This document shows positions 31,845 through 33,046 of a DNA stretch of 64,000 bases, in pieces. The stretch lies in sequence record PZ496580.1, one strand, 5' to 3'. Positions within the stretch are counted from its first letter, which is position 1; every line of letters starts with the position of its first letter. The notes below the pieces were generated by a model. That model was not told the DNA's origin, did not search any database, and was given only the letters and a program-made list of their open reading frames with translations. The DNA is from a phage. The translations under genes were made by a program, and so were the position numbers.

Positions 31845-32543
31845 CTAACCACGGGTATAGTGTTCCAGAACAACGGTCAGATGAATATATTCTAATAAAT
31901 CTTTCCAAAAGTCAACATCTGGTTCTTCCGGCATACCGTTTTTCTTTGCCTCTTCACGCGCGAGTTTAACACGCTCGTAGAGATCTTTCAATTCTTCCCG
32001 CACATTATCAAAGGTTCTTTCTCCTAACTTACACGCTAAAATAGAAGAACGTCGCGCGAGCGGGAATTGTAGATCACCTGTCTGATAGATTTCAAGTAGC
32101 TGATAACCAACACGCAGAGCATGAGAAAGATCTTTCCAGTTACTGAAATACTTTTCAGATTTGGCTACCTGTTTCTTGAGATAACCAGACAAACCCCACA
32201 TACCAACATGATAGAATTTATCGCGATGTGTTCGGATGTATTCCCATTCTCTGGAGGATTCGATCAACATGTTACTAGGCGCGTGCACCATGTCAATAGC
32301 GCCGATATCGCCTTTACATGCCAGATTGATAAACCGTTTTAGACTGAACATATTAACGTCAATATCGTCTTTGGTGTTCTTAATACCTTGACCGCTCGTG
32401 CTTTGGTCATAGTGTTCTTTCATCGATCCTAAGATAATTTCTTTCGCAGTCGGAACAAAGATACCACGATAATCTTTATCTGAATTTTCAGTATCAAGAC
32501 CGTACAAGTGAGATCCGAAGACCATTTTAACCATTGTATGCAT
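31845..32543 (-). CDS. Pol-beta-superfamily nucleotidyltransferase-like protein (232 aa)
   Basis: N-terminal MVFGSHLYGLDTENSDKDYRGIF fits the minimal NTase signature GS-x(9-13)-DxD; ATG at 32543; no clear -35/-10 upstream. Confidence 0.6.
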   Translation of the reverse strand: MHTMVKMVFGSHLYGLDTENSDKDYRGIFVPTAKEIILGSMKEHYDQSTSGQGIKNTKDDIDVNMFSLKRFINLACKGDIGAIDMVHAPSNMLIESSREWEYIRTHRDKFYHVGMWGLSGYLKKQVAKSEKYFSNWKDLSHALRVGYQLLEIYQTGDLQFPLARRSSILACKLGERTFDNVREELKDLYERVKLAREEAKKNGMPEEPDVDFWKDLLEYIHLTVVLEHYTRG

Positions 32544-32589
32544 AATTAAACCCTCAGTTGATTAAGAGATTGCATCATATCATCATAAA

Positions 32590-32620
32590 ACGAAAAAGCC
32601 AACCCTTTTCGGATTGGCTT
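32590..32620 (-). terminator. rho-independent terminator after grcA-like gene
   Basis: GC stem with one G.U, 5-nt loop, U-run on minus strand. Confidence 0.55.
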
Positions 32621-32629
32621 AATGAAAAA

Positions 32630-33046
32630 TTAGAGAGATTCGGTAAAGGTACGAGCGATAACATCACGCTGCTGGTCTGGAGTCAGACTATTGAAGCGCA
32701 CTGCGTAACCAGAAACGCGAATTGTAAGCTGCGGGTACTTCTCAGGATGTTCAACCGCGTCAAGTAACATTTCTCGTAACAATACGTTAACATTCAAATG
32801 CTGACCACCTTCGACAACCGGAGCACCATTATCTACAATCACCGGACGGAAGCTAGTTGTGTGTAGTGCCAGTGAATCGACGTCTTCTGCGGTGATCACA
32901 TGGTCTTCTGCGAAAGTTTTACTAACAATTACTTTAGCGCCGATCAGTGCTTTCGGTTCGGATACCAGAATCATAGGCGCGAAGTGTCCACCAATAATAG
33001 TACCTTTATGCTCACCTTTCATGATTTGAATTGCTTTAAATTCCAT
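32630..33046 (-). CDS. grcA: autonomous glycyl radical cofactor (GrcA/YfiD-like; T4 Y06I-type)
   Basis: C-terminus [35 protein letters not shown] is the conserved PFL C-terminal glycyl-radical module; 138 aa; ATG at 33046 with AGAGGTGA. Confidence 0.85.

Follow-up and report, generated by a model that had tools for sequence, protein, structure and literature searches.

Family RlaP of Pol-beta-type nucleotidyltransferases was named by Burroughs and Aravind for operon linkage to RNA ligases and was predicted by them to replace, prior to ligation, the nucleotides that cleaved RNAs have lost (both as related in PMC12776372 and PMC7824862). For phage RlaP as well, restoration of nucleotides ahead of ligation was predicted (PMC7824862). 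Activity was described for two Pseudomonas enzymes only, PfRlaP and PaRlaP, in a December 2025 preprint (PMC12776372): an RNA 3'-OH is extended by one or two NMPs or dNMPs, with Mn2+ as the preferred metal, and in E. coli extracts the enzymes labelled RNA and neither protein nor DNA, the latter being no substrate. With a cleaved-tRNA mimic, the 5' half was preferred, and aminoacylation of a tRNA short of one anticodon-loop nucleotide was partly restored; the tRNA-repair scenario was put forward there as a proposal, the basis of which was in vitro aminoacylation only. The crystal structure of PfRlaP displayed an N-terminal NTase domain and a C-terminal helical domain, with the last helix packed back on the NTase domain. 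NrdC.11 of phage T4 was placed in cluster 5 of the family, with no function assigned (PMC12776372).

Autonomous glycyl-radical proteins constitute the second group of interest. Two spare-part proteins of this kind have been validated experimentally, T4 Y06I and E. coli YfiD (Wagner et al. 2001, as cited in PMC8683613); according to the same citation, the activating enzyme of pyruvate formate-lyase (PFL-AE) installs the radical on them and oxygen-cleaved PFL regains activity. The radical site of PflB is numbered G734 in PMC8683613. T4 Vs.6 is annotated as GrcA in RefSeq; this annotation and a 2006 comparative paper (PMC1524935) are the basis on which Y06I is read here as the vs.6 product.

The locus described below carries homologues of both NrdC.11 and Vs.6. 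Our favoured explanation, to which we assign a probability of about 0.6, is that these would be two independent and non-essential accessory genes, one for RlaP-type tRNA repair and the other for a PFL spare part, which became neighbours by chance. What this analysis established are the families, the fold, the conserved positions, the order of the genes and the terminator.

The nrdC.11 and vs.6 homologues of a Krischvirus

The window, i.e. the whole 64-kb stretch of phage DNA analysed here, belongs to a Krischvirus, an RB49/Phi1-like T4-type coliphage. The 2.4 kb around both genes displayed 95-98 % nucleotide identity with 59 Krischvirus-type phage records (RB49, Phi1, GEC-3S and relatives). 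All genes of the stretch around 31845-33046 lie on the minus strand, including the two ORFs considered, which were identified by ORF and Pfam analysis:

31845..32543, minus strand: nrdC.11 homologue, short-form Pol-beta-type nucleotidyltransferase (hereafter NTase) of family RlaP (PF10127), 232 aa
32630..33046, minus strand: vs.6 homologue, autonomous glycyl-radical cofactor of GrcA/YfiD/Y06I type (Pfam Gly_radical), 138 aa

Phi1 annotation designates these genes as nrdC.11 (nucleotidyltransferase) and vs.6, with vs.8 and an M15 endolysin gene upstream of the pair and three small ORFs, regB, vs.1, vs and tk.4 downstream; Pfam and PHROG scans of the window neighbours agreed with it. Identical proteins are already held in GenBank (ABR24608.1 for the NTase and ABR24609.1 for Vs.6), and they were encountered on 248 and 148 contigs, respectively. 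Both genes are thus known, their names going back to the genome papers of T4 and RB49/Phi1, and they are of little discovery value; moreover, the characterisation of a vs.6 homologue dates from 2001 and that of the NTase family, by biochemistry, from 2025. The sequence-only reading had listed, as an outcome that would speak against it, a conserved T4-like gene of known function, and this is largely what was found: nrdC.11 is named, conserved across T4-like phages and part of a family with published activity.

Database names were rather inconsistent. NrdC.11 homologues were called 'thioredoxin' in many GenBank records, a label apparently inherited from the gene designation nrdC, and 'HNH endonuclease' or 'DNA polymerase' in others; Vs.6 was variously labelled 'pyruvate formate-lyase', 'acetyltransferase' or '2-ketobutyrate formate-lyase'. 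For both proteins, identical entries were encountered under Bacillus atrophaeus as well, and E. coli was given as the source of close members of the vs.6 cluster (130 aa), on contigs of ~165 kb; these entries look like phage genomes within bacterial assemblies.

Family, fold and possible role of the NTase

The only Pfam family matched by the NTase was PF10127, RlaP ("RNA repair pathway DNA polymerase beta family"), with an E-value of 3.4e-14 and 53.6 bits for a gathering score of 23 bits (residues 7-191 on model positions 24-198 of 249). The same family was matched by T4 NrdC.11 and by the short homologues, and PHROG 388 'nucleotidyltransferase' matched the NTase at 2e-79. Searches of PADLOC and NCBIfam gave no matches, and sequence searches of the PDB, whether started from the protein itself or from a profile of 148 sequences, yielded nothing meaningful. 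Globally, the family comprised 3,575 cluster representatives (50 % identity) at E<=1e-3, and homologues were present in about 1,620 phage records, mostly T4-like. Two sites carry the catalytic residues:

32472..32516, minus strand: hG[GS]...DxD motif (G10 S11 ... D22 K23 D24), nucleotide-binding loop and first two catalytic aspartates (translation, conservation, model)
32358..32366, minus strand: D60-I61-D62, third catalytic carboxylate site (conservation, model)

Residues 10-24 were confirmed by translation to read GSHLYGLDTENSDKD. The pattern G[GS]-x9-13-Dx[DE] alone is weak, being found in 9.3 % of shuffles of the NTase protein, and the case for a nucleotidyltransferase therefore rests on profiles and fold. 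G10, R144 and P161 were invariant among 148 family representatives, of which at least 90 % conserved S11, D22, D24, N56, D60, D62, D84, K137 and H141. The full Pol-beta catalytic set, i.e. the hG[GS] loop and three conserved aspartates, is present; the metal ligand is one of D60 and D62, the choice between the two being presumptive. An AlphaFold2 model based on the alignment of these 148 representatives (pLDDT 96.9, pTM 0.92) placed G10-S11 at the beta1/helix junction, strand beta2 (residues 23-30) right after D22 and D60/D62 at the start of strand 61-67, and displayed a helical domain at residues 116-201 followed by a terminal helix at 210-230. As modelled, the architecture is that of an NTase domain joined to a helical HEPN-like domain. 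Profile, conservation and fold model thus confirmed the sequence-only reading in its main point: the first ORF encodes a nucleotidyltransferase of Pol-beta fold, the catalytic aspartates are in place and the fold is supported. The gene is the Krischvirus counterpart of T4 nrdC.11 and encodes a Pol-beta nucleotidyltransferase of family RlaP.

T4 NrdC.11 (NP_049709.1) was aligned with the NTase by BLASTP with an E-value of 1e-50 and a single gap of 106 residues. [quoted passage not shown] Most homologues are 300-345 aa long and aligned in two pieces; end-to-end alignment was obtained for the Krischvirus protein and a small number of further ones, of 231-258 aa (P0002 with 57 % identity, P0143, P0153 and P0230). 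The segment absent from the short form corresponds to residues ~133-240 of the long form, roughly 100 aa. In a long-form homologue (P0037), it was confidently predicted (pLDDT mostly >90), with a beta-rich module of five short strands set between a first helix and a long second one; no fold or function was identified for it. The Pfam model, with its 249 positions, fits the short architecture. The short form is a variant inside a known family and already in databases, in which loss of the insert could alter substrate recognition relative to T4 NrdC.11.

Bacterial RlaP, as found in the rtcB-rlaP-rtcA operons of Pseudomonas (PfRlaP/PaRlaP), shares with the NTase the Pfam family, the three conserved aspartates and, as far as the description goes, probably the two-domain architecture; the length of the NTase is close to that of the family model, without the T4 insert. 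By homology to these enzymes, D22, D24 and D60/D62 would catalyse nucleotidyl transfer with a divalent metal, for which the bacterial enzymes use Mn2+, and the NTase would add one or two NMPs, template-independently, to an RNA 3'-OH. Its most likely substrate would be host tRNA halves from which 'smart' anticodon nucleases, RloC for instance, have removed nucleotides; two enzymes encoded at other places of the phage genome, Pnkp (pseT) and RNA ligase 1 (rnlA), could then reseal the tRNA. Both the substrate and the in vivo role are what we infer from this analogy. As a naturally minimal RlaP of 232 aa, the NTase could suit tests of phage nucleotide restoration on RloC-cut tRNA before ligation by Pnkp/Rnl1.

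No tRNA genes were detected by ARAGORN within the 64-kb window. RB49-like phages are not known to carry tRNA genes anywhere in their genome. If the whole genome indeed lacks them, the phage would be wholly reliant on host tRNAs, and this would fit the retention of tRNA-repair functions.

The following observations speak against a role in RNA repair. Unlike bacterial RlaP, the NTase is not located beside RNA ligase or kinase genes, its neighbours being vs.6, vs.8, endolysin, small unknown ORFs and regB, and in Phi1, pseT (Pnkp) and rnlA, which form a T4-type pair for the repair of tRNA, are encoded ~76 kb from nrdC.11; the linkage from which RlaP took its name is, in turn, also missing in many family members, including that of T4. 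The roughly 100-aa insert of T4 NrdC.11 is missing. Finally, the best solved structural neighbour of the NTase model was not an RNA repair enzyme but HalB (PDB 9dbh) of the Hailong defence system, a DNA-synthesising NTase that makes tyrosine-primed poly-dA as a tetramer. Identity between both proteins was 13 % and no sequence relationship was detected; it is this neighbour that brings an anti-defence enzyme of HalB type into consideration. Such an enzyme would produce free or protein/self-primed short oligonucleotides as a decoy keeping nucleotide-gated effectors of the host, such as HalA, off, which we hold to be very unlikely; that its product would replace a host 'all-clear' signal, e.g. 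the oligo-dA holding the Hailong HalA channel closed, appears just as improbable. Loss of the insert in Krischvirus would, in that case, reflect retargeting.

Other members of the superfamily came into question by their catalytic core. The sequence-only reading had proposed to place the NTase among CD-NTases, MenT/AbiEii or toxin NTases, which would make it a cyclic-nucleotide synthase or a tRNA-blocking toxin; the Pol-beta core motif is all that is shared with these, within a fold class of the same superfamily. Neither CD-NTase (CBASS)/cGAS-like nor MenT/AbiEii (DUF1814) families were matched in Pfam, where RlaP was the sole hit, or in PADLOC; no CD-NTase, cGAS-like protein or MenT was encountered among the best 50-60 fold matches, and no antitoxin-like gene among the neighbours. 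A signalling or toxin function was thus already disfavoured and is considered extremely unlikely. Transfer of nucleotides to a small molecule or protein instead of RNA, as by ANT/Lnu-type antibiotic adenylyltransferases or MNT/DrrA-type AMPylases, is unlikely: the corresponding matches were generic to the superfamily (8-14 % identity) and the family is RlaP, the tested members of which labelled the RNA of E. coli extracts and not protein or DNA. RNA repair remains the role we favour for the NTase.

Vs.6 and its PFL-type glycyl-radical domain

Vs.6 is a stand-alone protein of the ~14 kDa type that ends in a PFL-type glycyl-radical domain and belongs to the autonomous glycyl radical cofactor class. 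Pfam Gly_radical matched residues 78-119 (E=1.5e-16), E. coli GrcA (PDB 6owr) was matched with an E-value of 5.8e-33 and PflB with 5.5e-27 over residues 77-138 (PflB 698-759). Among its C-terminal 62 residues, 56 were identical to GrcA, 54 to T4 Vs.6 and 50 to PflB. The C-terminal stretch of 13 residues pointed out in the sequence-only reading begins at residue 110, together with the radical motif:

32705..32719, minus strand: RVSGY glycyl-radical motif, residues 110-114, with predicted radical site G113 (32708-32710) equivalent to PflB G734 (translation, alignment to PflB and GrcA)

Both motifs were hence found at the places where they had been reported, on two minus-strand ORFs, and the second ORF indeed encodes a GrcA-like autonomous glycyl-radical protein. 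NCBIfam TIGR04365 (GrcA) aligned with residues 37-138 (E=3.9e-39); the 133.8 bits obtained did not reach the equivalog cutoff of 170 bits because the N-terminal half diverges. With T4 Vs.6/Y06I and E. coli GrcA (YfiD), the window protein shares its small size, its stand-alone nature and a PflB-type radical loop at the C-terminus, and both vs.6 genes occupy the same locus, adjoining vs.8. It differs from them in its N-terminal half, which is longer than that of T4 Vs.6 and resembles neither protein; overall identity with T4 Vs.6 was 58 %, with two gaps.

Vs.6, of 15 kDa, would reproduce the glycyl-radical loop located at the C-terminus of the host pyruvate formate-lyase. By analogy with Y06I and YfiD, the host PFL-activating enzyme may radicalise it, upon which it would plug into oxygen-cleaved PflB and restore the fermentative output of acetyl-CoA and formate while oxygen fluctuates in the course of infection. 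A different client had been suggested by the sequence-only reading, according to which the protein complements nrdD/nrdG; it would then be a spare part for the phage NrdD, activated by NrdG. Both genes are indeed encoded in the window:

11581..13443: nrdD
9668..10177: nrdG

The RVSGY pentapeptide also occurs in the window NrdD, and a role of vs.6 in nucleotide metabolism was speculated upon in PMC1524935. Beyond this pentapeptide, however, Vs.6 displayed no significant similarity to the window NrdD (E=1.3), as opposed to its extensive identity with PflB and GrcA reported above, and it was oxygen-fragmented PFL that T4 Y06I reconstituted with PFL-AE (Wagner 2001, as cited in PMC8683613). Since Vs.6 resembles PflB and not the window NrdD, its client is likely the host PflB and not the phage reductase; a function in repairing NrdD was consequently judged quite unlikely.

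Adjacency, intergenic gap and flanking ORFs

The title of the sequence-only reading had implied a pairing of both genes, which are neighbours in Krischvirus only. In T4, they are ~7 kb apart: nrdC.11 lies between nrdC.10 and mobD and vs.6 between vs.5 and vs.7, whereas the window nrdC.11 is located between vs.6 and regB. About 7.6 kb separate them in a Slopekvirus-type Klebsiella phage. The T4 blocks nrdC.11-mobD.3 and vs.3-denV are both deletable (PMC9825161). In a metagenomic relative (L006), a NUMOD4/HNH homing endonuclease gene is inserted between vs.6 and the short RlaP gene, after the same terminator hairpin as in the window. A functional vs.6-NTase module was rejected because of the missing adjacency in T4, the conserved terminator between the genes and this HNH insertion. 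The evidence points to a lineage-specific juxtaposition and not to a conserved module.

Free-standing HNH homing endonucleases were repeatedly found to flank nrdC.11 (positions 3951-4547 of L006 and 12430-13209 of the T4 locus, L005). In T4 the flanking gene is mobD, the listed insertion site of which is nrdC.11/mobD.1. Such flanking may account for the differing positions of nrdC.11 among T4-like genera.

The 86-bp gap between vs.6 and the NTase gene displayed two overlapping features:

32586..32620, minus strand: strong intrinsic terminator after vs.6, 10-bp stem AAGCCAATCC/GGGTTGGCTT, loop GAAAA and T-run (terminator scan)
32574..32602, minus strand: weak sigma-70-like promoter candidate TTGGCT-N17-TATGAT, TG-extended (9/12 consensus match, not clearly above chance overall)

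The RNA fold of the terminator hairpin scored -21.4 kcal/mol (z=-2.4); the terminator is included in the GEC-3S annotation and the hairpin is kept in L006. The promoter candidate overlaps the descending arm of the terminator. Inspection of the gap by eye uncovered no late box of the T4 type (TATAAATA) and, with respect to T4 middle (MotA-box) promoters, nothing but a degenerate GGCTT box, the spacing of which departs from the consensus. The NTase gene has its own Shine-Dalgarno sequence, GAGGG, 8 nt ahead of the ATG, and is presumably expressed through partial read-through of the terminator. The 107 nt at 32534-32640, which include the gap and hold terminator, TATGAT repeats and Shine-Dalgarno sequence, were identical at 106 positions in the window, Phi1 and GEC-3S, as compared to about 95 % identity in the surrounding 2.4 kb. 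At the level of sequence, this conservation suggests a constraint beyond the hairpin.

On its downstream side, the NTase gene is directly followed by three small ORFs in tandem, which are paralogous (window 30988-31823, minus strand):

31629..31823, minus strand: small paralogous ORF, 64 aa
31387..31647, minus strand: small paralogous ORF, 86 aa
30988..~31326, minus strand: small paralogous ORF

They displayed a mutual identity of 42-48 % and a common C..L..W C-terminus, correspond to PHROGs 6261 and 15978 (no function given) and occupy the slot of T4 vs.3, vs.4 and vs.5. Between vs.8 and vs.6, a basic ORF of 41 aa (window 33057-33182, minus strand; ORF100 of Phi1) was also present, for which a search for family matches found none. 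At the equivalent position of L006, a gene of 39 aa was called.
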